Positions 3,291 to 36,112 of a stretch of DNA of 64,000 nucleotides are shown here, piece after piece. The notes below the pieces were generated by a model. The model saw only the letters and a list, made by a program, of their open reading frames with translations. It was not told where the DNA came from and searched no databases. The stretch is taken from the NCBI GenBank assembly GCA_965203175.1, contig OZ241867.1, positions 1,952,001 through 2,016,000 on the forward strand, in the 5' to 3' direction. Source of the DNA: Candidatus Latescibacterota bacterium (lineage in GTDB: Bacteria > Latescibacterota > UBA2968 > UBA8231). Both the position numbers and the translations under genes were made by a program. How positions within the stretch are numbered: the stretch's first letter is position 1; every line of letters starts with the position of its first letter.

Positions 3291-6080
3291 GTGCAGCTTC
3301 TGATTGCGCTCATCTGCTTTTTCCTTTCCGGCTTTGCGGGCCTAGTATACGAGGTGGTCTGGATTCGCCAAGCTTCATTGCTGTTCGGCTCCACTACCTT
3401 TGCCCTCAGCACAGTTCTAGCGGTTTTCTTCCTAGGCCTAGCCTGCGGTTCGTACCTCTTCGGCCGCTACGGTCAGCGGACCGGCCATCCTCTACTCGTT
3501 TTTGCTCTGGTTGAAATCGGCTTGGGGCTTTCGGCGCTAGCCAGTCCATATGCCTTCGAATTGGCAGACATCCTCTACGGCGCAGTTTACCGGTCCCTAG
3601 CCGGGCACGCCATTTTGCACTTCCTGACTCGGATTGTTCTAGTGGGATTCGCGGTCTTGCCGCCGACTGTTCTCATGGGTGCCACCCTCCCTCTCTTCTG
3701 TCGTCAGTTTGTGCGCAGCGATGCTAAAATTGTCCGTTCCGTCGGCTTGCTCTACGGCATCAACACTTTGGGCGCAGCCTTGGGTTGTGTCTGCGCCGGA
3801 TTTGTCCTTTTGCCTGAGCTAGGCTTTCTGAGCACAGTGCGACTTGGCGCCGTTCTGAACATACTCGTAGGCATCGTCGCAGGAGCTCTGCCAATCGCCA
3901 GAAGCGGACTGGCTCGACCTCGGCTTCTAAGGACTGAAGAGAGAGGTCATTGGGGTGTATTTGCGCTGTTTTTTGCCGTTGGCTTTGTAGCGTTGGGAAG
4001 CGAGGTGCTGTGGACGCGCTATTTGGGACTTTTGATCGCCAATACAGTGTACACCTACACGCTGACCTTGGCCGTAGTGCTAGTGGGTTTAGTGCTGGGG
4101 AGCGTACTAGCCTCTCTGTTCTTTGATAGGACAATACATAGAGCGCGGTATTTTGGCATTCTCCAGGTGCTTTTAGGGCTGGTGGTACTCCTCCTAATGA
4201 TGCTCCCAGCGGACATCTGGCGACGTCTAGGGGAGGAGTGGTGGGTTTATGCAGTTTTACTGCTGCCTCCCGCTGTTTTAGGAGGTGCATCTTTTCCGCT
4301 GGCGGTGAGAATGGTGGTCGAGGACGCATCCGCAGCGAGTGGTGGCACGGGAAAAATCGCCGCAGTCAACACATTGGGGGGAATCGCGGGGGCGTTGGCG
4401 ATCGGTTTTGTGGGCCTGCCATTCTTCGGTCTGGAGAGCAGTCTCCTCTTCGTCACGGGCACGAGCTTGGCTGTCGGGTTCGCTGCGTGGATCTGGCTCG
4501 ACCGCACATCTACCCCAGCCGTTAAATCGGCATTCATAGGGCTCTTCTCGTGCGTATGGCTCGGAGTTCCCTACCTGCTGCCCACCCGTATTCCCGCCGA
4601 CTTTCTGGGCGAGCGGGAAGAGCTTGTCGGCTTCCGCGAGGGCTACGGCTCCAACTTGGCGGTCATCCGCCAAGATCGTGGACTTCAACTCGAGATCAAC
4701 CGCTGGTGGCAAGGCCGGGATCGCAAAACACACCAAGTAATGGCGGCCCATGTCCCCATGTTGTTGCATCCCGATCCCAAGCGAGTCCTCTTGGTGGGCG
4801 TCGGCACCGGCCAGACCGCAGCTCGCTTCCTGCTCTACTCGATTGACCGCCTAGAGTGCGTCGATATCGAACCCACCATCTTCAGTTTTATCCGCCCCCA
4901 TTTCGACTCCCGGTGGATGGAAGATCCCAGAGTCGAACTGATCGGTGCCGACGGCCGCAACTATCTGCGCCATACCCCTTCAACGTACGATGTGATCTCC
5001 CTCGAATTGGGCCAGCTTTCCCGTCCCGGCGTGGCATCTTTCTATACGGTCGACTTCTATCGCCAAGTGAAAAAACGGCTGCGCTCTGGCGGTTTTCTGG
5101 TCCAATTTGTCCCCTTATCCCTTTTGACCACCAACCATTTTCGCAGCACTGTGCAGAGCTTTCTCAAGGCTTTCCCCCACAGCCTATTGTGGTACAATAC
5201 TTCAGAACTGCTGCTCATCGGCAGTGGACGGGATTTCGCCATTGATCGGACCATTGTCGAAGGACGTCTATCCAGCGAAAAAATTCGCCGCGATCTGGAG
5301 TACAGCCACTGGGGAGGCCCCCTCTACTGGCTCAACCGGCCACAGGTCTTTTTGGGCAGTTATCTGATGGGATCTGGTGGTTTAGCCGAACTGGCGAATG
5401 AGGCTCCGGTCTACGAGGACGATCAGCCCGTTCTCGACTATGCGGTCGCTCGCGCTTTTGTACATCGGACAAACGCACTCCCGACGCTCGATCTTTTGCA
5501 CCAGCATTTAGAACCCCTCGCCGCCTTGATGCCTATTGGGTCCGATGAAAAGAGGACCATTGAGGAAATACGGACCAAAAACCTGCGGGAAATTGCCGCT
5601 AGCGCCGCCCTCCGGCAAGCCAAAGTCCTAATCGCCGTCCGCAACTATCAGGGAGCCTCAAAGCTATTGGCAGGTGCCCTGCACCAACTCCCCGAGCACT
5701 TAGTGGTTAGGCGCACACTAGCGGATGTACTGATGCGCTTGGGCCACTTCGCAGAAGCGAGGGCTCACTACACCCAAGTCGTAGAAATCTCCCCTCGAGA
5801 TGTACAGGCCTTGGACGGCTTGGCTCTGGCATTCCACCAGTTGGGGCACCTCGACGAGGCGATCCACCACTACAAGGCGGCCCTACGGCTACAGCCCGAC
5901 CGGGCGGAAACCTGCAGCAATCTCGGAGGAGCGCTAGCCCGGCGAGGAAAGCTAAAAGAAGCCCAGTTTTATCTCGAAAAAGCACTCAAAATCAAAGCTG
6001 ACTTCGCCGATGCCAAACGCAACCTCGCCCAAGTACAAGCAGCCTTACAGCGAAGGGAAAAGTCGCGCACTGTACCGTGA
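3291..6080 (+). CDS. Fused multi-TM membrane / spermidine-synthase-like SAM-dependent domain protein with C-terminal TPRs
   Basis: N-terminus FLSGFAGLVYEVVWIR and LYGINTLGAALG motifs of the fused MFS/spermidine synthase family. VLLVGVGTGQT..CVDIEP..ADGRNYL SAM-binding motifs. About 4 TPRs at the C-terminus. Confidence 0.88.
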   Translation: MQLLIALICFFLSGFAGLVYEVVWIRQASLLFGSTTFALSTVLAVFFLGLACGSYLFGRYGQRTGHPLLVFALVEIGLGLSALASPYAFELADILYGAVYRSLAGHAILHFLTRIVLVGFAVLPPTVLMGATLPLFCRQFVRSDAKIVRSVGLLYGINTLGAALGCVCAGFVLLPELGFLSTVRLGAVLNILVGIVAGALPIARSGLARPRLLRTEERGHWGVFALFFAVGFVALGSEVLWTRYLGLLIANTVYTYTLTLAVVLVGLVLGSVLASLFFDRTIHRARYFGILQVLLGLVVLLLMMLPADIWRRLGEEWWVYAVLLLPPAVLGGASFPLAVRMVVEDASAASGGTGKIAAVNTLGGIAGALAIGFVGLPFFGLESSLLFVTGTSLAVGFAAWIWLDRTSTPAVKSAFIGLFSCVWLGVPYLLPTRIPADFLGEREELVGFREGYGSNLAVIRQDRGLQLEINRWWQGRDRKTHQVMAAHVPMLLHPDPKRVLLVGVGTGQTAARFLLYSIDRLECVDIEPTIFSFIRPHFDSRWMEDPRVELIGADGRNYLRHTPSTYDVISLELGQLSRPGVASFYTVDFYRQVKKRLRSGGFLVQFVPLSLLTTNHFRSTVQSFLKAFPHSLLWYNTSELLLIGSGRDFAIDRTIVEGRLSSEKIRRDLEYSHWGGPLYWLNRPQVFLGSYLMGSGGLAELANEAPVYEDDQPVLDYAVARAFVHRTNALPTLDLLHQHLEPLAALMPIGSDEKRTIEEIRTKNLREIAASAALRQAKVLIAVRNYQGASKLLAGALHQLPEHLVVRRTLADVLMRLGHFAEARAHYTQVVEISPRDVQALDGLALAFHQLGHLDEAIHHYKAALRLQPDRAETCSNLGGALARRGKLKEAQFYLEKALKIKADFADAKRNLAQVQAALQRREKSRTVP

Positions 6081-6095
6081 ATCTGGACTCGCTTT

Positions 6096-6992
6096 TTACC
6101 GCACGAGCGTCATCTTGCGGCTCTCTGTTCTATTCCCACTGCGCAAACGGTAAAAGTAAATGCCGGAGGGTACTAGCTGTCCTCCGGCGTCCCGCCCCTC
6201 CCAGTTTACCCTATAACGACCGGTCTGCAACCGCCCAACTACCAGATTGACCACAGGCCGTCCCAAGACGTCGAAAACCTGCAAATGCACTTCTGTTTCA
6301 CTAGACACGCTAAAAGGGATGACCGTGCCGCTGTTAAAGGGATTGGGGTAATTCCTCTCCAACTCAAAATTCCCCGGTTGACTATCCGACATCTCCAGCT
6401 CTGCGGTCGCCTCTAGCTGCTCCAGTTCCTTATCTCCAGCCACAAGCGTCGCACCCAAATTATCCAGCGCCCACCCAATGTGCTGGCGGATAACCTGTTC
6501 GTTGAACCGACGGGCAACAGCGCCCATCGAACGATAGCGCAAAATCCCCTCGTGGTCGATCACCGCGTAGTTATGCTGGGAAAAACCATAGAGGGCCCCT
6601 ACTGCACTGGCCTGGAGAAGAAGAGGGTAGGTCGTCCCTGTTCTCTGGCGAAAACTCAAGTCCACCTGTTGGCTGATGCCATCCGCTACATCCATGCCAA
6701 CCAAGACGAATTCCTCCCCTTTAAAATCCTGCCAAATCCGCTCTATCTTCGCGGCCTCCGCGAGACAGTGACTTCAGATAAAACCAAAAAAATTGATGAA
6801 GACCACCTTGCCGCGGAAGTCGTTCAGAGACACATAGTCGCCCTCTAGCTGCTGCAAAGTGAAGTCCGGCGCTAGATCGCCCACCTCGGGCACTTGCCCC
6901 ATCGTCCCTTGGACGCTTAACAGCAGAGCGATCAGCGGTCCCCCAAAAACACCGCTCCTCACCCTTATACAGTAGTTTCTCACCTTGACCAT
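6096..6992 (-). CDS. Probable selenoprotein: exported AhpC/TSA-TlpA-like redoxin (UxxC) with C-terminal FlgD-Ig/T9SS-type sorting domain
   Basis: ORFs 6774..6992 and 6096..6704 are in one frame, separated only by TGA 6774-6776. Read-through gives VGDLAPDFTL...GKVVFINFFGFI-U-SHCLAEA. The C-terminus is NYPNPFN...VFDVLGRPV...WEGRD...SGIYFYRL...RKMTLVR. Confidence 0.82.
6743..6768 (-). promoter_or_regulatory. Putative bacterial SECIS hairpin
   Basis: Minus-strand CUGUCUCGCGG-AGG-CCGCG(A)AGAUAG starts 5 nt after the UGA. The G-containing apical loop begins 16 nt downstream of the UGA. Confidence 0.7.
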
Positions 6993-7061
6993 TTTAGTAT
7001 ATTTTGTCTGTTTTATTTGACCCGTAATTTATGTTGGTTCCCGCAAACAGAAGAAGATTCA

Positions 7062-8708
7062 ATGAAACACCTCCTACTGGCCTGCTTGGTTTTTTCGACT
7101 AGCTGCAGCCCTCCCGAAGAATCTCTCGTGGCGGAAGTTGGCCCGCAGCAGATCAGCGCACGCCTGTTGCGCCTCTATGTGGAAGAACTGCCCGACGGGC
7201 TACGGACCCAAAAGACGGGCGATGAGGCCCGCCAGTACTACCTCCAAGCCCTGATAGACCGCCGACTTTTGCTGCTCGAAACCCGTTCCCGAGGACTCGA
7301 TACCACTACCACTTTTCAAAATTCAGTCCAAGACGCCGTCAATGCCCGGGTCAGGTCGATATATAAATCACAGGAAATAGCTTCTAAAGTCAAAATATCA
7401 AGTGAGACAGTACGTCGCCATTTCGAAAGGGAGGGCTACGGTCGAGAGCGCCTCCTCAACGCCATCAAAGTAGGGAGCCGGGCTGCCATCGACACCGTTC
7501 TTCAGGAGCTGAGGGCAGGCCGCCCCTTTGAGGAGGTCGCCCGGGCTCGCTCTCTGGACGAGCGCTCGGCCGAACGGGGTGGCGAGTTGGGCTTTATCGG
7601 TCGGGACCAGCTCGAGTCGCTTCACATCCCACCGCCGGTCTTCAAGAACCTACCTCAAGATCAACTCTCAGAGCCCCTGCCCGCCGGTTCTGCGTGGCAT
7701 ATTCTGCGCTTTAGTGAAGACCGGCCGGCCTCTTATGAGAAATACCAAGGGAGGATTGCCAGTCTGCTTTACCAAAAGCGCCTTGCCCAAGCAGAGGCCG
7801 AACACTTGGAGCAACTGCGCGATTCCTTCAACGTCCTCTTAAACTCGTCTGCCCTGCGCGAGTTAGTCAACGCCTATCAGGCAAAGCAACCCGCGCTCAT
7901 AGCGGGAAATTCAACGCCTTTATACACCTATAAAGGCGGCGAAATAACCCTGGGGCAGGTCCAGGAATTTTTGCGTCAGAGGAATATCAGTTTTGGCCTT
8001 GCAGACAGCGCTCAAGCTGCGGTTGCCCTGAACCGGTATTTTTTGGAGGCCCATCTGATCCAGGAAGCAGCCCGCAAAGACGGTTTTTACCAAACGCCTG
8101 AGATGCAGAAGTTTGTCGAGCGCACCGCGAATGCCAACCTTCTTGAAATCGTGAGAAAGAGCGTCATAGCCGACCTAATTGACCTCTCTGAAGAAGACGT
8201 GCGCCACTATTACGACACCCATTTGGAGACCTTCCGCCACAGCGAGGCCGTTTGGATTGAGGAGGTGCTGCTCCCCACCCAAGCCGACGCCCTACAGGTC
8301 AAAGCCCAAATAGAAGCAGGCGCATCCTTTGATCAATTTGTCGATAAGAGCTTGAGGGCCGACGCACAAAAATACAATGGGCGATATCATTTCCACATGC
8401 TGGGAAAAGCTCGCTATCCCGTGCTTGTACCCGCTGTTTTCCAATCCCAACAGGGCCAACTCGAAGGTCCTTTGCAAGTAGAGGGAGGCTACTCTGTATT
8501 CCGCGTCCTAGAACGGGAAGAAAGCAGCATCGAACCTTTTGAAACTGTTCAACAGCGGGCTCGAGCACTGGTCCGTCTAGAGCGGGAGACCCAAGCGCTA
8601 AATGCCTTTTTGGTGCAACTGAGGGAGAAATATGCTGACCAAGTCAAAATCTACCCCGACCGCCTCAAGGAAGCAGTGCCCGACTCCCTATTGCTAGTCC
8701 AAAACTAA
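7062..8708 (+). CDS. Peptidyl-prolyl cis-trans isomerase lipoprotein (two PpiC/parvulin domains; PrsA/SurA-like foldase)
   Basis: MKHLLLACLVFSTSC lipobox. First parvulin: FEEVARARSLD..SAERGGELGFI. Second parvulin: GASFDQFV...GPLQVEGGYSVFRV. Start placed at ATG 7062. Confidence 0.85.
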   Translation: MKHLLLACLVFSTSCSPPEESLVAEVGPQQISARLLRLYVEELPDGLRTQKTGDEARQYYLQALIDRRLLLLETRSRGLDTTTTFQNSVQDAVNARVRSIYKSQEIASKVKISSETVRRHFEREGYGRERLLNAIKVGSRAAIDTVLQELRAGRPFEEVARARSLDERSAERGGELGFIGRDQLESLHIPPPVFKNLPQDQLSEPLPAGSAWHILRFSEDRPASYEKYQGRIASLLYQKRLAQAEAEHLEQLRDSFNVLLNSSALRELVNAYQAKQPALIAGNSTPLYTYKGGEITLGQVQEFLRQRNISFGLADSAQAAVALNRYFLEAHLIQEAARKDGFYQTPEMQKFVERTANANLLEIVRKSVIADLIDLSEEDVRHYYDTHLETFRHSEAVWIEEVLLPTQADALQVKAQIEAGASFDQFVDKSLRADAQKYNGRYHFHMLGKARYPVLVPAVFQSQQGQLEGPLQVEGGYSVFRVLEREESSIEPFETVQQRARALVRLERETQALNAFLVQLREKYADQVKIYPDRLKEAVPDSLLLVQN

Positions 8709-8816
8709 ATTCAGCGCTATTTTGTGGATTCGCGTCGGCGTGCAACCGTCTCAAGCGAGCAACTCACGCTGTGAGCACCTATCCTCGATAACCGCCATTA
8801 AACGATTTTAAAAAAA

Positions 8817-8846
8817 TTGTCTATAATGACCTGTATTTCTTAGAAT
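8817..8846 (+). promoter_or_regulatory. Possible sigma-70 promoter
   Basis: TTGTCT-18 nt-TAGAAT with an AT-rich upstream tract, ahead of the AGGAGG-ATG at 8888. Confidence 0.4.
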
Positions 8847-8887
8847 AATACTGTACGATGCGATTGATATGCGCACAGGAGGCCCCT

Positions 8888-11800
8888 ATGAGACGCCCTA
8901 GTTACTCCTCTCGCTGCCCTGCCCTGATTCTCATCTTCTTGCTCGGCCTGAACCTCGTGCCAGCCCAGCCCGCTGAAGCTCAGAAGCGGGGATACCGGAT
9001 CGCCGGCAACCAAATCGTCGTCAACTCCCCAGCCCATTGGGAGCGTTGGAGCATGCCCATACATGCCGTAAACATACTCCCCTCCGGCGGCGTCCAGCCC
9101 CACTCCTCCCGCTCCCGATTCAATATCTTAGACGACTTGGAGACCTATGCGCGTCGCTTGCCGGAACTCAGGCGCAAGAAAGGTCAGACCGCCGTCTCAA
9201 ATATCGACAGCACTGAAACGCTGGATGTCTTCGGCAACGTTATACGCGATCGCAAAAAAAATCCCCTCTACACCCATCTGTCCCGCATAGGTATCAGCCG
9301 CGTTGGATCCAATCCCAAGGCCGCAGCCAATATTCTGGACGGCGACCCCAATACCTTCTGGGAGCCCGACTTCAACGATCCCATAGAGGAGTGGTGGGTT
9401 GAGGTGGACCTCGGCCGGAGCCTGCCCGTCGATGAGTTAGTCTTAAACTTTGTCGATGAGTCGTTGGGCGATCCCTTCCGCCAGTTCAGAATATTGAGTG
9501 CCCCTTTCCAAAAAATTCTCAACCACGAGGCGAACGAAATCCCCTTTCGCCGCGAAGGCGGCACCAAAGGCTCCAACGAGGACCAACGGGTGTTCTCTTT
9601 CCCCCTAGAGCAATTCAAGGCTGACCCCAATTGGACTGGGGAAACCGTCCAGGTAATCCGCATTGTAGTAACCGATTCCAGATTCGGCCGGCGCAAGTTG
9701 ATTTCAGAGGAGGAATGGTCTGCTCTGAATCCGGCGGACCGAGGAGATGTTGTCTACTATATTAAGAACCAACGGGGATTCGAAGAACCGGTTGAAAAAT
9801 CTGTTTACGACGATCTGTCGCCCGAACGCCAAGGCAAAATAGAGCACTACATCCGCGAGCGGCCTCGGCTGGCCGACATCCAAGTCTGGGGATTTGGGGA
9901 CAATCTCAGCCCGAGGCTCGTAGAGGGGGGCGGCTCGGCCGGTTTCTATGGGTCCAACGATTCCTTTTCTCCGGCCCCGGCATTTGACGGGGATGGAGGC
10001 TCCAATTTTATCCACCTAGTCTGGTCTCCGACGGTGGACCGGGGAGTTTTATTCGTGGATATGGGAGCTACTTTCTGGTTGGACACCTTTCGCATGTCCT
10101 CCTCCCTGCCTCGGCTTCAGATCGATGGCTATATTCTGCGCGGCTCGGACGGGTCGCGGGATTCTAGCGGCCGGATCAAATGGCGGCGCATAAGTGATCG
10201 GGCCCGGGAACACAACCTAGCAGATCTGTTCGAGCACATAATGGATATATACCAGCCCCCTCCCAAAGTACGCTTCCTGGAAATAACCATCGTCTCCGAT
10301 GACCCCAGGCGCCGGGGCGGTTATGCCGCCGGTCCGAACGTCTCCGAATACCAACTCTTCTCAAATGGCTATCCGGCTGTAGTAGAGTTGGTCTCGGATC
10401 TGATAGAACTGCCAGGAACGAAGAATCTAGGCGGCATCACTTGGGAAGGCGAGACTCCACCAGGGACCACGCTGGAGGTGCGCACCCGCACTGGCGATCT
10501 GCTGGCCAAGGAGATTCGCTATTACGACAAAGGTGGTACGGAAATTACCGCCGACGCTTGGAAGAATCTCATCGGCAGTTTTAAAGGTCCGGCGGACACC
10601 ACCTTTATCCCGACGAGAGGCTGGAGCCCCTGGAGTCGGGCCTACCAGAACCCGGGAGATCCGGTGACCTCCCCTGGGTTGCGGAAGTTCATGCAGGTCC
10701 AAGTCAAAATGATCACGACCGACCGAAATGTCTCCGCCTCCATACAATCTATCGGCATTGAAATGGCCACCCCTGTGGCCGAACTCATTTTGGCCGAAAT
10801 GTGGCCCATTGATATTCCCACTCCGGGCATCGTCGATACCTTCGAAGTATTCATCCAACCCAATTTTACCGAAAGTCCCTTTAGCGCGCGCAGTGCTGGG
10901 TTCGATGAAATCCTGCTGACCATGCCTGCCTCCCAAAGCATGGAACTCCTCGAGGTGGGCCTAGACACCGATCCCTTGACCGATGGGGAAGATCAAGTTT
11001 TTCTTCCCACTGGAGAGGGAGGTTTCGTCGCCGGAAACGGTGAGGCGCTCCAGTTCTCGGGTCCCACCACTGGCTCCGATTCTATCTGGGTACAACTACC
11101 CACCTCACTCCATAGCCTCTCCGATTTGCCCAAAATCTATAACAAGATTACCGCAGAAGGCGATCAAGTACCAGTAACAGGAGACGGCCTGCTGCTCTCG
11201 GGGGATTCTTACGGCCTGCTCCATGGCAAGGAAAAGGGAGATATCCTCTATTTCGATGCAGAGGGCAACTCTATCGATCAGGCCGCCTACCTGGCCCTCA
11301 ACGAGGAAGAGCAAGGCTTCATGCGCTTCTTTAGGCTGCTGAACGGAGACGGGGCTCAGTTTCCCTTCGACGAGGTGGGGGATTCCCTCGATGTTACCTC
11401 CTACAACCGCCTCTCCAGAAAGGAAAAAGGCAATATAGTCGGCCGAGGTCCGCTGGTACGGCTGCGCTATAGGGCACCGGTCTTTCTCAATGGCACTACG
11501 CTGCGCCTAGCGGTACGCAATACCAGCAGCGGCAGTGATGCTCCATGGCAGATCATCGCTGCCGGCGATGCGACTCCTTTGGTGGCGAGCAATTCCCTTA
11601 CTATCAATGTACCGTTGGAGAGCAAACCCATCGATAAATTTAGTCTAGCCCCCAATCCCTTCACCCCCAATGGGGACGGCATCAACGACGAGATTGTGAT
11701 TCGCTTCTCCATCTTTAAAATAACGGCCAACCGCCAAGTGAAGGTGAAGATTTTCACTCTAGATGGCCGCTCGGTATGGGAGGCGACGCAGATGCTCGAC

Positions 11801-11947
11801 AGCGGCCACGTTTCAATCCGCTGGTCCGGCGAAGACCGCAACGGCCAAAGAGTGGCACCCGGGCTCTACCTCTGTCAGCTAGAACTGGATGTAGACAACC
11901 AAACAGGCGGGTCCACCCAAACCCGTCTGCTTTCCGTCGCCTACTAG
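8888..11947 (+). CDS. Large secreted protein with discoidin/F5-8-like domains and C-terminal FlgD-Ig/CHU_C-like domain
   Basis: AGGAGG SD before ATG 8888. Signal peptide ending AEA. ILDGDPNTFW..WWVEVDLG (discoidin-like). C-terminal NPFTPNGDGIND...WSGED...PGLYL. Confidence 0.8.
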   Translation: MRRPSYSSRCPALILIFLLGLNLVPAQPAEAQKRGYRIAGNQIVVNSPAHWERWSMPIHAVNILPSGGVQPHSSRSRFNILDDLETYARRLPELRRKKGQTAVSNIDSTETLDVFGNVIRDRKKNPLYTHLSRIGISRVGSNPKAAANILDGDPNTFWEPDFNDPIEEWWVEVDLGRSLPVDELVLNFVDESLGDPFRQFRILSAPFQKILNHEANEIPFRREGGTKGSNEDQRVFSFPLEQFKADPNWTGETVQVIRIVVTDSRFGRRKLISEEEWSALNPADRGDVVYYIKNQRGFEEPVEKSVYDDLSPERQGKIEHYIRERPRLADIQVWGFGDNLSPRLVEGGGSAGFYGSNDSFSPAPAFDGDGGSNFIHLVWSPTVDRGVLFVDMGATFWLDTFRMSSSLPRLQIDGYILRGSDGSRDSSGRIKWRRISDRAREHNLADLFEHIMDIYQPPPKVRFLEITIVSDDPRRRGGYAAGPNVSEYQLFSNGYPAVVELVSDLIELPGTKNLGGITWEGETPPGTTLEVRTRTGDLLAKEIRYYDKGGTEITADAWKNLIGSFKGPADTTFIPTRGWSPWSRAYQNPGDPVTSPGLRKFMQVQVKMITTDRNVSASIQSIGIEMATPVAELILAEMWPIDIPTPGIVDTFEVFIQPNFTESPFSARSAGFDEILLTMPASQSMELLEVGLDTDPLTDGEDQVFLPTGEGGFVAGNGEALQFSGPTTGSDSIWVQLPTSLHSLSDLPKIYNKITAEGDQVPVTGDGLLLSGDSYGLLHGKEKGDILYFDAEGNSIDQAAYLALNEEEQGFMRFFRLLNGDGAQFPFDEVGDSLDVTSYNRLSRKEKGNIVGRGPLVRLRYRAPVFLNGTTLRLAVRNTSSGSDAPWQIIAAGDATPLVASNSLTINVPLESKPIDKFSLAPNPFTPNGDGINDEIVIRFSIFKITANRQVKVKIFTLDGRSVWEATQMLDSGHVSIRWSGEDRNGQRVAPGLYLCQLELDVDNQTGGSTQTRLLSVAY

Positions 11948-12097
11948 CGGGAAGGCTCAAGGCTCATAGTCCGCTACCAATGTATTGGAAAGAGCTTGAC
12001 AAGCTGTCCAACTTAGTATATCTCTACGCGCGAATAACTTATAAGTATAGGATCAGATCACGATCCCGCTGAAGTTAAGACAACGCAAAGGAGGCAG

Positions 12098-14785
12098 TTG
12101 GTGATTACACGAAGATCAGCTTTTTGCCTCGTTTGGGGCGCAATCTATCTGAGTTTGATTCCATTTCACGCCCTAGCTCAACAGTACGGAAACCGTCTCG
12201 GCACGGTCCAGCGAGGGGGAGAAGTATCCTTCCAACCCAGGGGCCCAGGGGTGCTCTTTGGTGCCCTAGACCCGGCCCAGAGGAAATGGTATGTACCCCA
12301 AGAACTCTTTAATGAGTACCAGTGGCGCCAGTGGGAGTACTCCAACTATGCCCGGGAACATTTTCAGAGGTATGTCAATATCGTCAATGAAGGCGATTCT
12401 TTCTACGACCTCTACGGCAACTATATCACCCGGGGTTGGGTTATCTTCAATAATTCCCAAACCCAGCCGCAACAGTTTGGCTCTTCCATCCTCAAAGCCA
12501 ACAGGTTTGATCAATGGTTCAGCGGTGCCCTTATCTCGGCCGATGCCAAGGGCCAAAACTACTATGCCCTGACCATAGGCGCCGCCCTCCGCACTACCCT
12601 CACCCCCATGACCTTTTCCAAACCTCGCTGGGACGGAATCCAATTCGACTACGCCGCCGACAAGTACCAGGGGACTATAATCTACTCGCGCATCAGTCAG
12701 CCCGGCGGCACTACTACGAACGATATTGAGACTCTAGCGACCAACACCACGTCCCTCATTGGCGGGCGCTTTACCACCCAAGTCGGCGATTTTGCTACCA
12801 TTGGTCTCACCAGCGTCAATAGTCACCAGTCCAATACCATCATCGATGGATTCGCCGGCAATCCCATCACCGGCGAACTGACTCTGGACCAGAACAACAC
12901 CATTTCTGCCATTGAAATTGTCCTGCGCGATGACTCGCCTGAAGACGGAGTGGGAGGTGCCGCCTTCTTCCCGGCCGGTTCCGATATTATCATCACCTAC
13001 CTAGACGGTACGGTGGACCGGGGCAAACAAATTCGCTTTGAGCCCGTCATCGAAGGGGGTTTTGTCCGCGAAGGCTTTCTCTCAGCAGATGGCACCGAGG
13101 AAATTCGCCTGCGTTACGACTTTGACAGCCCGGCTTTTATCAGCCGCGCCAGTTCCTCCAAGGAAGATATCAAAAAGGTGAAATTCCGTCTGGTTCTGGG
13201 CAACGATTACCAGGTGTGGGTGACCTCGGATCGGCAATTGAACCAATCGGACGTTTCGGTTTTGATTTTGCAGGCCCAAGCCGAGGGCAATGTCCAAGAC
13301 AATACCAACCTGCAGGTAGTCAGCTTCGAGTATGGTCTGCCCACGGCTACCCAGATCTGGGGCGGCACCTTGGAGTTGAATGAGGTTTTGGGCTTCGATT
13401 TCTACGGCGAATACGACCTGAGCTATTCCTATACTAAGTACCCCAACGTCACCATCGATGCCACTGAGAAAGACCACTCCACTTGGTCGGGCATCGATGG
13501 AGACCGAGCGGCTCCGGCTTGGATGATCAACCTGTCGCGCGCCGATTACCCTTGGTTCGTCTTTGCTGAAGCCTACAGCATGGATCCGCGCTACAACACG
13601 AGGACCTTCACCACCCTCAGTTCCGGCTTTATCGATTATGAGGACGAACGCGCCCATGTACTAGAATTGGTGGAGGACAACGACGATCAGGACCAATTCC
13701 CCGATACGGTCCGCAAAGACTGGAGATCAGGCGACCAGCAGGTCTATCCGGGTTGGGATGAAAACGGCGACTTCATATCTGACTTCAACCAAAACGACAA
13801 CCGCTCGTTGACCAACTCCATTCCCGACTACGATGAGCCTTTTCTGCGCCACAACGTGGATCGTCCCGAGTTTCTCTTTGGGGTCGATATGAACAACAAC
13901 GGCTGGATCGACCGCTTTGAAAACGACGAATTGCCGGATTATCCCTACAAGAAGGATCACCGAGGCTACAACATCTATTTTGGCACCCATCTGAGCCCAG
14001 AGATGCGCATCACCCTTGGTGCCCTGCGCGAGGATCTGATTTCCTCGGACCAAAAGAACCAGGCGAGGTACGCTCTCTTCACCTTGGACCGCGATACGGC
14101 CACATGGGGGCATTGGCGTCTTTTCAATATGCTCAAGTCAGTGGAAGACGATATTGCCGACGATTTACTGCAGTGGCTGCCCAACGCCAATATTCGCACC
14201 GGCGAATCCACCAAAATCGAGGATCCTCTCATCGGGCGCGACGCTTGGATCAATTCCCTATGGCTAGGCAATGACTACAAACTCAGCGGATTTAAGGTCA
14301 GCAACTACCTAAAGTACGATTTCTACCACCAGCGGCTCAGCCAGAATGAGCGCGCTCCTCTGGGCTTGCGCGAACAAGATTTCTTCTTTGGCCTTATCAA
14401 TAAAGCCAGCTACCGCTTCGACTTGGGCAACCTGTGGCTCGAACCGCGCTGGAAAAGCGAATTCCGCTACCAGAGCATCGATCTAACCTCCACCGATAAA
14501 CGCCGAGAGCTCATGGAACTAGGCGGCCTTATTTTGGGATTTCCCCTGCTGGCCCATACGAGTGTTCAAGCTGGTCTGGAGTTCTCCCGCTTCGACGATT
14601 TCGAAAACGACATCAATGACTTCAATGGCGTGGTGAGTGCGGTGCAATTTAGCAATGATTCGGCCTACCTAGGGTACCAGTTGACCACTCGGATGGGCTT
14701 GCAAATAGATCGCCGCAAAGCCAAAGGGAAAAGCGCGAGCATCATCACCCAAAGTTTCCTCACCGTCTATGCTGGTATACAGTAA
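12098..14785 (+). CDS. Large secreted hypothetical protein, probable outer-membrane beta-barrel with Asp-rich Ca-binding-like loops
   Basis: Signal peptide ending ALA. Aromatic-rich alternating beta-strand patterns, especially in the last ~250 aa. DNDDQDQFPD, DENGDFISD and DMNNNGWID loops. Ends FLTVYAGIQ. Confidence 0.6.
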   Translation: MVITRRSAFCLVWGAIYLSLIPFHALAQQYGNRLGTVQRGGEVSFQPRGPGVLFGALDPAQRKWYVPQELFNEYQWRQWEYSNYAREHFQRYVNIVNEGDSFYDLYGNYITRGWVIFNNSQTQPQQFGSSILKANRFDQWFSGALISADAKGQNYYALTIGAALRTTLTPMTFSKPRWDGIQFDYAADKYQGTIIYSRISQPGGTTTNDIETLATNTTSLIGGRFTTQVGDFATIGLTSVNSHQSNTIIDGFAGNPITGELTLDQNNTISAIEIVLRDDSPEDGVGGAAFFPAGSDIIITYLDGTVDRGKQIRFEPVIEGGFVREGFLSADGTEEIRLRYDFDSPAFISRASSSKEDIKKVKFRLVLGNDYQVWVTSDRQLNQSDVSVLILQAQAEGNVQDNTNLQVVSFEYGLPTATQIWGGTLELNEVLGFDFYGEYDLSYSYTKYPNVTIDATEKDHSTWSGIDGDRAAPAWMINLSRADYPWFVFAEAYSMDPRYNTRTFTTLSSGFIDYEDERAHVLELVEDNDDQDQFPDTVRKDWRSGDQQVYPGWDENGDFISDFNQNDNRSLTNSIPDYDEPFLRHNVDRPEFLFGVDMNNNGWIDRFENDELPDYPYKKDHRGYNIYFGTHLSPEMRITLGALREDLISSDQKNQARYALFTLDRDTATWGHWRLFNMLKSVEDDIADDLLQWLPNANIRTGESTKIEDPLIGRDAWINSLWLGNDYKLSGFKVSNYLKYDFYHQRLSQNERAPLGLREQDFFFGLINKASYRFDLGNLWLEPRWKSEFRYQSIDLTSTDKRRELMELGGLILGFPLLAHTSVQAGLEFSRFDDFENDINDFNGVVSAVQFSNDSAYLGYQLTTRMGLQIDRRKAKGKSASIITQSFLTVYAGIQ

Positions 14786-14797
14786 TTTCTCCCAGGC

Positions 14798-17077
14798 ATG
14801 ACTGCACCTTTTGCCCCAGGCGACTGGCACCGCCTGGGGCTTGCCCTTTTGTTGGGCCTGTTGGCGCTAATCCTCCGCCTTATCTACTTGGAGCAAATTC
14901 GGGATAGCTTATTCTTTAATATCCCCATCGTAGATGCCAAAACCTATGCGGAGGATGGACTCTATCTAAGCAGTCAGTCCTGGGCCGGCCGACCGATGCC
15001 CTTCTGGCAGCCGCCGCTGTACCCTTATCTCTTGAGCCTCTTTTTCTGGTTTTCCGACCAAAACCTCTACCTGCCGCGCCTGTTCCAAGCTCTGCTCGGA
15101 GCGGGTATATGCGTCTTTACCTACATTCTCGGCCTCCGCGTTTTCTCCTTTCCCGTAGCTTTTGGGGCCGGGTTGGTCGCTGCTTTTTACGGTCCGCTGA
15201 TCTACTTTGGCGGTGAGTTGCTGCCCACTATTCCGGCCATTTTCCTCAACCTGCTGTTGCTGTTACATCTGAGCCGCCAGCCCAGTCCAGATCGCTGGCC
15301 CTATCTGGTCTCCGGCCTCTTGCTAGGTATATGTGCCTTGGCCGTAGCCAATATTCTCTTGTTCCTTCCCTTCCTGCTTTTCTGGTTGTGGTCCACTGGT
15401 AAAAGGGCACATATTGCCCTCTCTCGCATCTTGCAACAGGGCGTCCTCCTTCTTTTGGGATGTGGCCTTGTTATCGCTCCCGTTGCGCTGCGTAATTATC
15501 TCGTTGGCGGCGACCTAGTGCTGATTTCCCATAATGCCGGGATCAATTTCTACATCGGCAATAACCCCGACTACGATCACACGGTCAATATCCGCCCGGG
15601 GCAAGACTGGCTTCACCTAATTGAAAGCCCCGAAAGAGAAGCAGGTATTGAACGCCCCTCGTCAAAGTCCCGCTTTTTCTTTGCGCGCTCATGGGCCTAT
15701 ATCGCTGATGCTCCCTTGGATTACCTGAAACTTTTGGGGCGCAAACTCTATCTTTTTTGGCACGGTGACGAAATCCGGCGGAATCTCGATCCCTATTTCG
15801 CCCGCGGCGATTCGACCTTGCTCCAAGTTTTACTGTGGAAGTTTGGTCTGGCTTTTCCCTTTGGGCTAGTGGGGCCTTTCGCCCTGCTCGGGCTGGCGTT
15901 CTTCGGGTGGAGCAAAGAAGGCCGTACCCCCCAAGGACGTCTGCTGTTATTTTTTCTTCTCGCCTACATGCTCTCGGTGATTCTCTTCTTCGTGACTACT
16001 CGCTATCGCCTACCTGCCGTGCCTATTTTGTTGCTCTTTGCCGCTTTTGGCCTGTACAGGCTCTGGTACACATCTCATCGCCTCTGGGTCTTGGCCGGCG
16101 TAATCGGGGCCGTAGTGCTGACCAACTTGGGCACCGGTCGAATGGATATGGCAGGGGACACTCAGCAGCGCTTCTGGATGGGCTATGCCTATGAGCAGAA
16201 GGGCATGATCGCCAACGCCATGCGGGAATACCGCGCCGTGATTGAGGACCGTCCCGATCACCGGAATGCCTTGTTGAGCCTGGCCAACCTCTACAACGCA
16301 AAAGCACAACACGCCGATGCCCTAGAAATCTACCATCAATATTTGCGCTTTTATCCCGAGACCGTTCCCGCTCGTTTTCTGCTGGGCAATGCCTATCTGG
16401 GTGCCCAGTTGTATCAGGAGGCCATCGCCATCTACTCCGATCTGGTTCCTCTGCGACCCCAATGGGCCGCCCTCCACGGCCGCCTAGGCTACGCCTATGT
16501 AATGGCTGGCCAGCCCCAGCGCGCCATCCAAACCTATCGCCAAACCCTTGACCTCCAGCCGGATTCGAGCCTAGTGCGCTACCAGTTGACCCGGCTCTAC
16601 GAAGAGACCGGCGACATAGATACAGCCGAAAAAGAGTGTCGCATCCTGCTGAGCCAAGAACCGGAAAATCCCCAGTACCATACCCTTTTGGCCAATCTTT
16701 TGCTCAAACGCGAAGGAGTTGCAAAAGGGGCAAACTCGCTAGGTCGGTCCCCCCGATTGCTAGCGGCAGAAGACCATCTGCTTCAGGCTATCGGCTTGGA
16801 TGCCAATTCCGTCCAGACCCGCTGGAGTTTGGGTCTGCTCCTAGCCCGACAAAAGCGCTACACTGAAGCAATTGAGCACTTCGAGAAAATCCTGCTCTTA
16901 AGGCCCACAGAGTTTGAGGCCCACAGGCACCTAGGCAATCTCTACAAGCGCGCCGGAGACCTCAAAAAGGCCGACGAACACTACGGTCTTTATAGCCTTG
17001 CCGATCAGCAACAAAAAATGCGGCAACGAGCCGAAACCTCAATAAAAGAACAATTGACAAAAATCTTGGGGAAATGA
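14798..17077 (+). CDS. GT-C fold glycosyltransferase (PMT_2/ArnT-like, GT39-like) with C-terminal TPRs
   Basis: Multi-TM N-terminus with DAKTY, PPLYPY, NFYIGNNP and RYRLP motifs, followed by a TPR array. Confidence 0.82.
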   Translation: MTAPFAPGDWHRLGLALLLGLLALILRLIYLEQIRDSLFFNIPIVDAKTYAEDGLYLSSQSWAGRPMPFWQPPLYPYLLSLFFWFSDQNLYLPRLFQALLGAGICVFTYILGLRVFSFPVAFGAGLVAAFYGPLIYFGGELLPTIPAIFLNLLLLLHLSRQPSPDRWPYLVSGLLLGICALAVANILLFLPFLLFWLWSTGKRAHIALSRILQQGVLLLLGCGLVIAPVALRNYLVGGDLVLISHNAGINFYIGNNPDYDHTVNIRPGQDWLHLIESPEREAGIERPSSKSRFFFARSWAYIADAPLDYLKLLGRKLYLFWHGDEIRRNLDPYFARGDSTLLQVLLWKFGLAFPFGLVGPFALLGLAFFGWSKEGRTPQGRLLLFFLLAYMLSVILFFVTTRYRLPAVPILLLFAAFGLYRLWYTSHRLWVLAGVIGAVVLTNLGTGRMDMAGDTQQRFWMGYAYEQKGMIANAMREYRAVIEDRPDHRNALLSLANLYNAKAQHADALEIYHQYLRFYPETVPARFLLGNAYLGAQLYQEAIAIYSDLVPLRPQWAALHGRLGYAYVMAGQPQRAIQTYRQTLDLQPDSSLVRYQLTRLYEETGDIDTAEKECRILLSQEPENPQYHTLLANLLLKREGVAKGANSLGRSPRLLAAEDHLLQAIGLDANSVQTRWSLGLLLARQKRYTEAIEHFEKILLLRPTEFEAHRHLGNLYKRAGDLKKADEHYGLYSLADQQQKMRQRAETSIKEQLTKILGK

Positions 17078-17081
17078 CCCA

Positions 17082-17110
17082 TTGACATGCAAAACTATTT
17101 CGCGCATAGT
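17082..17110 (+). promoter_or_regulatory. Putative sigma-70 promoter
   Basis: TTGACA-17 nt-CATAGT upstream of GAGGAG-ATG 17155. Confidence 0.55.
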
Positions 17111-17154
17111 TCAACATTAGGCCACTCAGTTCCAACCTTTGCTGAGGAGATGCC

Positions 17155-19272
17155 ATGCTTAAGAATACAGTATCCTCAAGACAGGTCATCTTAATTTGGA
17201 TTGGAGTCCTGTCCCTCTGCCGTTGGGCAGTCGCGCTGGAGACGGTGAGTCTTGGAGAGAACGGCTCCCTCAACTGGCGCGGTGAAGGTTCGTCCTCGGT
17301 GGAGACTATCGAGCCTCAGTACCGATCCCTTTTCCAAGACGACGATGTGCCGGGCGTGGAACTGGAGGTGGGCAACTCACCCGGCAGTTTGATCGAGTTT
17401 GAGAGCGACCAATTCCCCGGTAGTATCCATCCTCTGCGCATTCCAGATGGCGAGAATATCGCCAATACCGCCCTAGGACGCGGGGGTGGTATAGAAGCAC
17501 CCAATGTCTTGGACTTGGGTGGCTTCACCTCCGGCATTTTTGACAAAAAGGACCTGGAGATCACCTTGGAGGAACTCATCAAAACGGATGACGGCGGTGA
17601 ACTAAAAGCGTTCGAACGCAAGAATTACAATGCCTTGGGGACCCTAATATTCGTCGAGTTGGGGGGACTCTTTGGGGTGAATCGCGTTCGCTTCTATCCC
17701 CGCAATACGGTTTTCCCATCGCCTACCACCCCATTCCACAACGATTTTTTGCGGGCCTTTGAACTGTTCACCAACGACGGCAGCCAGACCGAAGGAGGCA
17801 ATCTCATCTGGGAGCCACTGCTCCTAGAACCCGATAACGAGAATCCAGTTGTCGATGTAATTATTGATCCACCGCGTTCTGTCAAAGCCCTGCGCTTGCG
17901 GGCGACGACCACGGTCAACTACGAGATCGACGAGTTTGAGGTATTCGGTACGGGCTTTTTGTCCAACGCCGAGTATATTTCACCTATTTTCGATGCGGGC
18001 CAACCTGCGGTGTGGAACGTACTCCGCTGGCAGGAAGAAGCAATTGGCGATCCTTCCTTTTCCAATATCCAGATTCGCACCCGCACAGGTAGGGATACTA
18101 ACCCACTTGTCTTTACTCGTCTGCTCTACGGCCAGCGCAATCCCACAGAAATTTCGCTCTCGGTAAATAACCTGGAACAGGAAATGGATTTGGCAGAGTA
18201 CAAATCGCTGCCGCTCGACGACGAATTGGGGCGCCGATGGGAGCACGGACCGGTTCGGGAAGATCTAGTCAACTGGAGTCCGTTCAGCACGCCGCTTCCC
18301 GCCAGTGCAGCCAACGATACGGCGGGCACACCCATTACCTCACCCGGGCCGCGGCGCTATTTTCAGTTTCGAGTAATTTTCAACAGTAGCGATCTGGATG
18401 CAGGGCGGGTGCTCAAGAGCTTGAGTTTTGATGTGCTGGCACCCCCTCTAGCCGATGCCGTTATCGGCGAAATTTTTCCCCGGGATGTGCCAGTTTCCCA
18501 GAGTACGTCCTTCACCTATGCCCTGCGCACCGAGGCTCAGTCCGACGGCTTGCTCGGTTTTGACACAGTGAAGATTTCCACAGTCAGCCAAGTGGAAAGC
18601 ATCGACAGTATAGAAATGAGGGATTCCAGCGGCCAAATCATCGCTGAGCGGACTTTTGCTGGTCTAGATGATTCGTCTATTGAGGAGGGGTTCCAGATCG
18701 TCTCGGTATCCCCTGCCAGTTTTTCGGTGCGTCTGCCGCCGGTGAGCGAAGATAATATCGTGATTCTCCTCCGCTTTCAGACCGGAGTCTTGATATATAG
18801 TACAAACTTCACTGGTTCGGTCCTGCTCTCCACCGAACTAGGGGCTTCGCAGGCCATTATTCCGGGCGATGCAGTTTTGTTGGGTGAAGGGGACGAGGCC
18901 GATTTATCCGGTACCACAGTGCTTAGTCCCTCGGTACTCGAAAAGACCCAACTGCTCGACCAAATACTTATCGAACCCAGTATCTTTAGCCCCAACGGAG
19001 ACGGAGCTAATGATGTGATGGGGATGAGCTACAATCTGCTATCCTTGAGTATCGTCCGACCTGTGGCAATTGGGGTGTACGATTTAAGCGGACGCCAGAT
19101 CCGGGTCATCCACGACGGACCCGAGACCAATGGGCAGTACGCGGACAAGACCTGGGACGGCCGCAATGAGCATGGGCAGCTAGTGCCGCCGGGACTTTAC
19201 CTCGTGCACATCAAAGTCAAGGGAGACGCCAAGGTCGAGGAAAGGGCCCACATTGTGGGAGTGGTCTACTAA
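17155..19272 (+). CDS. Secreted protein with C-terminal FlgD-Ig/CHU_C-like domain (paralog family)
   Basis: Signal peptide. Shared motifs EIDEFEVFG, IRTRTG, WSPFS, SPGPRRY, GEIFP, FSPNGDGAND...WDGRN...PGLY, ending VVY. Confidence 0.8.
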   Translation: MLKNTVSSRQVILIWIGVLSLCRWAVALETVSLGENGSLNWRGEGSSSVETIEPQYRSLFQDDDVPGVELEVGNSPGSLIEFESDQFPGSIHPLRIPDGENIANTALGRGGGIEAPNVLDLGGFTSGIFDKKDLEITLEELIKTDDGGELKAFERKNYNALGTLIFVELGGLFGVNRVRFYPRNTVFPSPTTPFHNDFLRAFELFTNDGSQTEGGNLIWEPLLLEPDNENPVVDVIIDPPRSVKALRLRATTTVNYEIDEFEVFGTGFLSNAEYISPIFDAGQPAVWNVLRWQEEAIGDPSFSNIQIRTRTGRDTNPLVFTRLLYGQRNPTEISLSVNNLEQEMDLAEYKSLPLDDELGRRWEHGPVREDLVNWSPFSTPLPASAANDTAGTPITSPGPRRYFQFRVIFNSSDLDAGRVLKSLSFDVLAPPLADAVIGEIFPRDVPVSQSTSFTYALRTEAQSDGLLGFDTVKISTVSQVESIDSIEMRDSSGQIIAERTFAGLDDSSIEEGFQIVSVSPASFSVRLPPVSEDNIVILLRFQTGVLIYSTNFTGSVLLSTELGASQAIIPGDAVLLGEGDEADLSGTTVLSPSVLEKTQLLDQILIEPSIFSPNGDGANDVMGMSYNLLSLSIVRPVAIGVYDLSGRQIRVIHDGPETNGQYADKTWDGRNEHGQLVPPGLYLVHIKVKGDAKVEERAHIVGVVY

Positions 19273-19356
19273 TCGCTCCGCAGCCAAAACGGCTTAAGAT
19301 CCTGATCGTCGGTCTTGCTCATTAATTGTCTACTCCGCACCAGCAAGGAGCGAGTT

Positions 19357-21522: not shown

Positions 21523-21630
21523 AAGAAGCATAGAAGAGATTTTGTTTCAAAACGCTGAGCTTGAGTGTATACTTAAATTTCGCAACCTTTGAACTGCACA
21601 CTGTATTGATGAAGCAGCAAGGAGGAAGTT

Positions 21631-23796: not shown

Positions 23797-23810
23797 AATC
23801 GGAATCTTTC

Positions 23811-23838
23811 TTGACACCCTATTCCTTTAGCATTTAAT
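23811..23838 (+). promoter_or_regulatory. Putative sigma-70 promoter
   Basis: TTGACA-16 nt-TTTAAT in the intergenic region before 23978. Confidence 0.45.
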
Positions 23839-23977
23839 TAGGGCATCTTTCCAGTGGTCCTTTGAATAGAAAGGAGGGGATTTAGGATAAGGATCGGGCT
23901 CGAATCGAGTTGATAGGGGTTTTTTCTCTCCTATCGTCAAGAATCCTTCTCTCTCTAACTGAAAGGTTCATGATAAG

Positions 23978-24880
23978 ATGAAAAGGAAGATAGCTATTTT
24001 GTGCAGTGTCTTTCTCGTCTTTGGGACCATTTCGGTGGCAAATGCACATTTGCCGCCGGGCGAGTTGTTTTTTGCTGCACAATTTCCAGATAACCTAGTT
24101 CCCACTATAGATGGGGACCACAGCGATTGGGACATTCTTCCCGAATCGCCTTATTCGATCTTCAATGATCGGCTTTTCGATCCCGCCCAGTTCCAGCAGG
24201 CGGCTCGTGGTGAGGTCGATATCTCCGATGCCAATATCCGGCACCGGTTTGGCTGGAATGAGAATTCCAACATGATCTACCTCGCCAGCCAAATTTACGA
24301 CAATATCCACAACATCGACCGCCCCTTTGGGAAATGTCACTGCCACGATGACAACTGGGAAATAGAAATCAACCCAGATCATTCTGCCAGTGAAGAGCAA
24401 AACCTCGAAGGGAATCCCGTCAACAACATCAGCTACAAGTGGGTCGTACCACCACTAGATGGGGTTTATCAGTCGATTGAGCCCATCGGCGATCTAGCTT
24501 GGTTGTCGGACGATACCGAGTTCGTCGACATGAGCTGGTCTTTCACCGGTGAACAATTCGGCGAATCGACGTACTTTTACGAGATCCGCCTCATTCCGAT
24601 CGATGCCCTCCCCCGGGAAGGCGCGACCCCGGACAATTCGTCTATCCACGACTTGGAAGAGGAAGAAATCATCCATATGTCGGTAACCATGGGTGATATC
24701 GACGTCGAAGAGGCAAACCACGCCTACAATGGCTTCTGGTCTTTGTCGCCGGAGAGCTGCTGTAAAGGCGTCAACGACTTCGTGATGGCACCTGTCGAGC
24801 CCGCACTGGAAGAACTGTCTGCCGCTACTGCTGTTGAAGAGACCAGTTGGGGGCATATCAAGGCCGGTTTCGACCGCTAG
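23978..24880 (+). CDS. Secreted acidic protein, CBM9/DOMON-like, with short C-terminal 'TAVEETSWGHIK' motif
   Basis: Signal peptide (ANA). PTIDGDHSDW...FGWNE...IYL...DDNWEIEINPDH...YFYEIR pattern typical of CBM9-like domains. Confidence 0.65.
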   Translation: MKRKIAILCSVFLVFGTISVANAHLPPGELFFAAQFPDNLVPTIDGDHSDWDILPESPYSIFNDRLFDPAQFQQAARGEVDISDANIRHRFGWNENSNMIYLASQIYDNIHNIDRPFGKCHCHDDNWEIEINPDHSASEEQNLEGNPVNNISYKWVVPPLDGVYQSIEPIGDLAWLSDDTEFVDMSWSFTGEQFGESTYFYEIRLIPIDALPREGATPDNSSIHDLEEEEIIHMSVTMGDIDVEEANHAYNGFWSLSPESCCKGVNDFVMAPVEPALEELSAATAVEETSWGHIKAGFDR

Positions 24881-30934: not shown

Positions 30935-30948
30935 GGTCGATTCCTTCC

Positions 30949-31068
30949 TCATTCGTGATACGGGGCATCGGCCGGAGACGCGGCTGTCGCGGTCTGGTAG
31001 CCGGCCTGCTTGAGCAGCAGGGACAGCGACGTGGTCACGGAAATATCGTCATCTACTACCAAGATCAT
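30949..31068 (-). pseudogene. Duplicated 5' fragment of the sigma-54 response regulator, ending in a permease-like tail
   Basis: MILVVDDDISVTTSLSLLLKQAGYQTATAASPA is identical in protein to the regulator N-terminus, then DAPYHE*. Confidence 0.85.
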
Positions 31069-31078
31069 CGCCCAGTCC

Positions 31079-32251: not shown

Positions 32252-32360
32252 GGTTGATTCCTTCCTTATTCGCGGTGAAGGGCCTTGGCTAGCCTAAGCG
32301 TCCGGTGAAATTCGTCCGAAACATCGTCAGCGGCAACATGTTGTCCGTCAACATCAAGGA

Positions 32361-34826: not shown

Positions 34827-34871
34827 TCGTGGTGAAGCACTGAATGCTCTACATCAAAGGCAAGGGAATGC

Positions 34872-36044: not shown

Positions 36045-36112
36045 CCCCCTTGTGGATGTGTAGAGTGTGTTTGGGTTTGTTCAGGCAAATGCTCGTACAT
36101 ATAATGAAACGC

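Follow-up and report, generated by a model that had tools for sequence, protein, structure and literature searches.

A predicted selenocysteine redoxin with a T9SS sorting domain, from a family encoded beside TlpA and DUF6029 in Latescibacterota

An in-frame TGA at a redoxin active site

Does the TGA that parts two open reading frames at this locus end a broken gene, or is it read as selenocysteine (Sec)? In the window, by which we mean the whole 64,000-nucleotide stretch of DNA analyzed, positions 6096..6992 of the minus strand translate as a single 298-codon frame followed by TAA, with a sole in-frame TGA at 6776-6774. This TGA is codon 73 and falls in VVFINFFGFI-U-SH-C-LAE, where translation and the ortholog alignment support reading it as Sec73 at the first position of U-S-H-C (6774..6776); Cys76, the second position of the UxxC motif (6765..6767), is invariant in alignments of the redoxin family. 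An earlier, sequence-only reading had placed both fragments in one frame, divided by one TGA at the first Cys position of a CxxC, and both points hold: the frame translates throughout, and the TGA aligns with TGC or TGT Cys codons in homologs. That reading also expected gene callers to split the gene, and public calls indeed consist of a truncated ‘T9SS type A sorting domain-containing protein’ of 199-202 aa. Its comparison with two TlpA genes of the window was less useful. These genes do carry Cys at the equivalent position (WWQTFCPPC at 34872-36044 and WWHTACSPC at 36113-37333), but they are distant relatives (for one of them, 21% identity, E 9e-5) and not the comparison that informs.

The full gene would encode a 298-aa Sec redoxin with a T9SS type A tail (P0001), an assignment based on translation, domain matches and orthologs. 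Residues 1-32 (6897..6992, on the minus strand like the other features of this gene) form a probable signal peptide, read by eye from a basic start, a hydrophobic core and a TMG/Q cleavage site. Its start codon is uncertain; the upstream ATG is GTG in one ortholog and out of frame in one, and the hydrophobic core and the Q are kept in 13/13 orthologs. A thioredoxin-fold domain spans residues 37-161 (6510..6884), where the Pfam AhpC-TSA and Redoxin models both score above their cut-offs and a His stands at the cis-Pro position. Por_Secre_tail, FlgD_ig and TIGR04183 each score above cut-off over residues 215-294, and the type A C-terminal sorting domain (6099..6350; YPNPFN ... GIYFYRL ... KMTLVR) scores 30.7 bits with PF18962 (cut-off 27) and 44.2 bits with TIGR04183 (cut-off 23). 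A scan for promoters and terminators returned 0 promoter-like sites and terminators at chance level.

The same two genes flank the redoxin in 12/12 ortholog loci. A PPIC-type PPIase gene diverges from it, 69 nt from the redoxin start (7062..8708, plus strand), and a membrane/spermidine-synthase-like/TPR gene converges on it (3291..6080, plus strand). Also encoded in the cassette to which the PPIase gene belongs (7062-24880) are several large proteins whose tails are of CHU_C/FlgD type, a protein of 895 aa that no Pfam model matches and one of 300 aa in which KCHCH and SCC motifs occur. Two stretches of the cassette, 19315-21522 and 21631-23796, repeat each other in tandem and are almost identical. 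Further along the window, tandem duplicates occupy 29780-37333 and comprise two 390-aa PDZ-like proteins (29780-30952 and 31079-32251) and the TlpA-like pair, which has long N-terminal extensions. A transposase-like ORF (54487-55533, minus strand), presumably IS5-type, is inserted among unrelated genes.

Evidence for selenocysteine

The source genome (G000), a single contig of 6.58 Mb, holds selA, selB and selD above cut-off and a tRNA-Sec with anticodon TCA, and its selD itself contains a TGA; the search for Sec machinery that had been proposed as a check thus yields a complete set. Full-length orthologs with 86-90% identity and one TGA each occur in 12 of 30 genomes of the same genus, and the TGA is kept in 13/13 orthologs, counts in which genomes of one genus are not independent. 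pN/pS is 0.09 before the TGA and 0.22 after it, and both halves are therefore under selection as protein. More broadly, a profile of the redoxin family finds 66 matches in 48/151 genomes of the phylum. All but 2 of these (64/66) carry a TGA, whose conservation extends over at least four families within the phylum; each of the 2 Cys copies (L041 and L142) stands in tandem beside a Sec copy. With nine metagenome loci, these two account for the Cys codons (TGC or TGT) in the Sec column, and homologs at this column thus show either a conserved TGA or Cys. P0002 and P0010 were left out of the Cys homologs because their DNA was not seen and both nest among Sec sequences. In the sequencing data, a contig of run X2 that is near-identical to the window gene, and possibly the source DNA, spans the gene with two changes, neither of them at the TGA. 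RNA-library contigs X15 and X17 span the TGA region in relatives, and such contigs cannot show transcription.

The sequence-only reading had further pointed to a hairpin just 3′ of the UGA with a G-containing loop beginning after 16 nt, and folding agrees. The predicted bacterial SECIS-type hairpin (6743..6768, minus strand) has an apical loop AGG at 6757-6755 that starts 16 nt after the UGA, a 5-bp upper stem and an energy of -14.8 kcal/mol (z -3.06); as good a fold is reached by 4/200 shuffles and by 1% of 200 shuffles that keep the encoded protein by synonymous codons. The bSECIS model, as set out in the excerpted text of PMC13188914, calls for a 3-9 nt loop with G in its first two positions, a 4-16 bp stem, a distance of 16-37 nt from the UGA and an energy of at most -7.5 kcal/mol, and the window hairpin lies within all four of these limits. 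By itself the hairpin is weak evidence for Sec, because 172 of the 806 coding-like TGA sites in the genome pass a looser filter that combines coding score and hairpin; as a genome-wide selenoprotein hunt this search was too unspecific for a selenoproteome count, and among the sites listed those that passed were mostly gene ends and antisense frames. Under our own filter, a hairpin at the right spacing is present in 41/44 distinct Sec sequences versus 2/11 Cys sequences, 9/11 of the latter being AT-rich, a confounder; the stems differ between subfamilies. Third positions vary in 2/11 codons within the hairpin versus 60/135, too few sites to stand alone. Another in-frame TGA of this genome (G000:C1:4126800, minus strand), in CSRA-U-HAPTV, has a hairpin and the UHxP motif of formate dehydrogenase alpha subunits, and reads as another selenoprotein.

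Machinery, homologs and sequencing data thus all came out in favor of the hidden selenoprotein that had been proposed, and we regard it as nearly certain that the window gene encodes one, with SelB bound to the hairpin delivering Sec at UGA73. A reading of the TGA as a genuine stop, as the lesion of a pseudogene or as an error in sequencing can appeal to the splitting of the gene by gene callers and to evidence that is so far genomic. A broken gene is, however, refuted by conservation of the TGA at the depth of several families, and purifying selection on both halves, the occurrence of Sec/Cys pairs even in tandem and the full Sec machinery also stand against this reading, which we consider extremely improbable.

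The redoxin family and its TlpA-DUF6029 neighbors

Members of the redoxin family carry FG[YF]x[UC]xxC in place of WATWC. A cis-Pro opposite the active site is a feature of TlpA, ResA and DsbE and is used by canonical disulfide reductases. As read by pattern, it is present in 0/68 family members; the site, whose position was confirmed against 3KCM, is mostly Asp and otherwise Glu, Gln, Asn or His. Set against curated NCBIfam models, the window protein reaches no cut-off as a redoxin, and the best NCBIfam E-values of family members are weak. We rejected assignment to ResA, TlpA or DsbE (53.6 of 170, 26.5 of 230 and 25.4 of 123 bits, all below cut-off), as well as to the deiodinase-related (NF038285) and peroxiredoxin models (27.4 of 250 and 24.2 of 140 bits), the motif being UxxC and not TxxU/TxxC.

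The Cys form of the redoxin with a T9SS tail is widespread in other FCB bacteria. Among 149 representatives listed, 73 are 235-300 aa long, and 57 of these 73 end in a PNP-type tail by our own pattern; 2 of 10 clusters looked up have a taxon in their name, Calditrichota and Marinimicrobia. Whereas the sequence-only reading had called the domain combination unusual, redoxin plus T9SS tail is common in the Cys form; what is unusual, and new, is therefore only the presence of Sec in this combination of domains. The C-terminal tails of 56 distinct family domains comprise 39 of T9SS type, 9 that are dockerin-like (calls that rest on sub-cut-off matches), 3 of a short SWG type and 5 unassigned; the anchor appears to have been exchanged within the family but kept. 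The short tail, A-V-x-x-x-S-W-G-x-x-K in place of a T9SS domain, occurs at L114, L116 and L119 and in P0002 and P0010. It also terminates the 300-aa protein of the window cassette (23978-24880) and is possibly a separate sorting signal.

Only two family members are present in the source genome. The paralog (G000 C1:5973440-5974468) has FFLGYS-U-PVC, an acidic linker and a T9SS tail, and lies in a cluster (G000:C1:5973440-5976524; L063:2440-5524) with a convergent DUF6029 barrel gene and a divergent TlpA gene encoding WATWCKPC; an NHL-repeat gene is found upstream. The genome has one DUF6029 gene and one DsbD-family gene. This TlpA-DUF6029 link was absent from the sequence-only reading. Redoxin and DUF6029 genes lie within 4 kb of one another in 38 of the 41 genomes that hold both, and the same spacing is found in G116, G131 and G137, whose barrels had escaped the Pfam search. 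At Cys-form metagenome loci, which represent one subfamily, are partly redundant and exclude L154 (a weak unrelated match, E 1e-4), the end of a DUF6029 gene lies directly upstream in 9/10, the remaining locus offering too little DNA, and TlpA precedes the barrel in 3/3 loci that are long enough.

Other occupants and other settings of this neighborhood were also observed. In G071, a protein with an Omp28 domain and a T9SS tail fills the redoxin slot beside TlpA-DUF6029; Omp28 (PF11551) was matched in only 3/151 genomes, and we rejected Omp28 membership for the redoxin family, whose profile aligned with the G071 Omp28 domain over 22 columns at 23% probability. A narrow family profile (E 1e-30) has no match in 44/85 genomes with DUF6029, among which G057 and G158 hold distant Sec members. 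Conversely, no DUF6029 was found in the family of genomes to which G038 and G042 belong (L041:2054-3124 and L067:8351-9259); there, the next protein after the dockerin-tailed Sec/Cys redoxins is a different one, with a Cys-Cys pair (CCRIQ) at its end; it has a PF13557 barrel match in L041 and is possibly a second barrel type for the same job. In G015 and G016, the TlpA-DUF6029 cluster is flanked by genes that we take, from their motifs, to be SelO/YdiU-like and MsrA-like (L064:4099-5670 and 11578-12003; L065:547-1092 and 6880-8427).

The DUF6029 barrels share a C-terminal CxxxxC, present in 29/30 of those chosen by Pfam, and in 39/44 the last 495 residues contain no Cys other than this pair. 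Invariance of these Cys residues in our barrel alignment A2 was discarded as circular, that motif having been the criterion for choosing the rows; the independent count is 29/30. A structural model of the barrel (pLDDT 84, pTM 0.80) has ~24 long strands, and its Cys pair sits in a short hairpin (pLDDT about 63) that precedes the last strand. We assume that the C-terminal Phe rule puts this loop on the extracellular side. A fold search with the model returned only generic large barrels (ushers, TonB receptors, AlgE and Wzi) at 8-14% identity, and a search of plasmids gave no DUF6029 match. The only paper found that names DUF6029 proposes, in its excerpted text, a possible polysaccharide porin or export function (PMC9603273).

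The window gene itself is not adjacent to DUF6029 or TlpA and lies 4 Mb from the DUF6029 cluster, where its paralog resides. The row nearest to its clade in the tree, which is also its nearest non-ortholog, is a G115 protein (support 92/69, not starred) encoded between TlpA and DUF6029, which makes a relocated, diverged second copy the best reading of the window gene. Clade-specific changes occur near its active site, and in its clade Ala stands at a position where Trp is near-invariant in the family.

Export, function and relation to known systems

The window protein is likely to be exported. The source genome encodes SprA, a PorU adjoining a PorV and several more PorV proteins, and contains 103 type A tail matches; selA lies ~4.6 kb from sprA (G000:C1:2481570-2493947). 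Profile searches did not find GldL, GldM or GldN in this genome, gave only sub-cut-off FGE-type matches for GldK and found GldM_1st in 0/81 phylum genomes, all without a positive-control genome, and the absence of motor genes is therefore not established. SprA, PorU and PorV together with ~100 type A tails, while GldL/M/N go undetected, could possibly mean a T9SS that is motor-less or differently powered. According to a passage of PMC11285876 that leaves Latescibacterota unnamed, T9SS may occur in other FCB phyla. We consider it probable that the signal peptide carries the redoxin to the periplasm, that the type A tail takes it through the SprA/PorV translocon, and that PorU cleaves the tail off and probably attaches the enzyme to the cell surface. 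The earlier claim of cell-surface routing thus stands as far as the tail and the translocon and sortase genes go, but the GldL/M/N motor was undetected and the route is one that we infer.

Several known systems resemble parts of this protein. It shares Pfam domains, the UxxC motif and a hairpin just 3′ of the UGA with the bacterial UxxC selenoproteins of PMC13188914, whose excerpted catalog includes a ‘Prx-like thiol:disulfide oxidoreductase’ (PF00578), a ‘Redoxin family protein’ (PF08534) and a ‘Thiol-disulfide isomerase-like protein’. The words ‘secretion’, ‘signal peptide’ and ‘Latescibacter’ are absent from that portion of the review, and its broad Pfam-level entries could still cover the window protein. 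GOS_C (NF045500, Omp28_seleno), as excerpted from PMC2398784, is likewise a marine UxxC thioredoxin-fold selenoprotein, and it is the Omp28 fold that takes the redoxin’s place in G071; membership in this family was rejected, with 0/21 genomes over the cut-off and no match in the source genome. HBP35 of Porphyromonas gingivalis combines a thioredoxin motif with a C-terminal sorting domain at the cell surface and has thioredoxin activity in vitro (PMC2907840, in the excerpt available), and an excerpt of PMC11285876 counts it as T9SS cargo. In contrast to the window protein, HBP35 uses Cys, binds haemin and belongs to Bacteroidota with a full T9SS; its structure is absent from the best 60 of the 63 matches that the family profile has in the PDB. 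The best sequence matches to the family are periplasmic reductases of the TlpA/ResA/DsbE type (PDB 2LS5 and 3KCM), at no more than roughly a third of the ResA cut-off. They share a CxxC-type site in a redoxin fold, here UxxC, whereas the window family has FG[YF]x[UC]xxC, a surface-sorting tail and no cis-Pro; 2LS5 also lacks cis-Pro in the alignment. Finally, Paraprevotella clara 00502 is a surface-anchored T9SS cargo with a thioredoxin-like Omp28 name that acts on an extracellular host protein, but it belongs to a different family, and the excerpt of PMC9477747 mentions neither thioredoxin nor disulfide.

What might such an enzyme do? With its UxxC site it could be a thiol/disulfide reductase whose substrates are extracellular or at the surface. 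Conserved gene order appears to tie the family to an unstudied three-gene outer-membrane module, of which it would normally form the outer end. In this module, DsbD would feed TlpA in the periplasm, the DUF6029 barrel in the outer membrane would bear a single Cys pair on its last loop, and the third component would be a thioredoxin-fold protein held by an anchor. Judging from gene neighborhood and anatomy, electrons would pass from DsbD to TlpA, then to the barrel Cys pair and on to the surface redoxin, and the window copy would use the single genomic DUF6029 in trans. For the whole chain, a surface-sorted Sec redoxin recycled by a DsbD-TlpA-DUF6029 relay, we see the case as evenly balanced. 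The window gene may have left the relay, given the 4 Mb between it and the DUF6029 cluster and its Ala in place of the near-invariant Trp, and the missing cis-Pro counts against the relay reading. Still more tentative is the broader proposal of an undescribed FCB trans-outer-membrane thiol conduit, built from DsbD, TlpA and the DUF6029 Cys hairpin, that would keep surface enzymes reduced, with a Latescibacterota version consisting of selenoenzymes, a T9SS-like translocon without a canonical PorL/M motor, and extra copies acting on extracellular or host disulfides.

A real selenoprotein could serve other ends. Its conserved head-to-head arrangement with the PPIase gene, the changes near the active site of its clade and the failure to find T9SS motor genes would all suit recruitment as a folding or redox helper for the PPIase/T9SS-cargo/large-barrel cassette, working in the periplasm or at the translocon independently of DUF6029. 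The 12 orthologs are one clade, however; seven dispersed redoxin copies in G100 and G120 have varied neighbors, a homolog of the cassette barrel is nearby in only 1/10 loci checked, and the source genome has just its two family members despite many T9SS-cargo genes. We judge this alternative unlikely.

The lack of cis-Pro also leaves room for a surface antioxidant, dehalogenating or metal-binding selenoprotein, peroxidase- or deiodinase-like, that a relay, if any, would only recycle. Several runs containing this DNA are labeled sponge metagenome, and weak matches link the family to BCP peroxidase (33/36 members) and deiodinase-related models (26/36), but these matches are all far below cut-off, ResA is the best model for 36/36 members, and the motif is UxxC rather than the TxxU/UxxT of peroxidases given in the excerpt of PMC13188914; such a function seems to us quite unlikely. 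More doubtful again is a module that is reversed or sensing, in which the redoxin reports or imports oxidizing equivalents or the Cys pair gates the DUF6029 pore. The modeled barrel would be as large as usher and polysaccharide-export barrels, in keeping with the porin role proposed for DUF6029. Against this, the fixed neighbor is a ResA/TlpA-type reductase with WATWCKPC. Sec at the first CxxC position also fits a reducing nucleophile.

On this evidence the window gene appears to encode a genuine selenoprotein that had been hidden, from a family for which no curated model exists, and a variant of two known themes, UxxC redoxins and T9SS-exported thioredoxins. In the literature searched, mostly main texts of open-access papers, no description was found of a T9SS-tailed selenoprotein, of this family or of a DUF6029 relay; members with a Prx-like label may be present in the GOS Datasets S1/S2 and in later papers on selenoprotein prediction. 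The finding adds a selenoprotein family that is spread over about a third of the Latescibacterota genomes sampled (48/151) and is truncated in public calls. It also raises the question of how SprA, PorU and PorV work where a PorL/M motor is undetectable. Other FCB lineages have the Cys form, and these may be open to genetics. Once sorted across the outer membrane, a Sec enzyme would need re-reduction outside the cell, and the conserved TlpA-DUF6029 pair offers a testable answer, in which the DUF6029 barrel may carry reducing power out of the cell.
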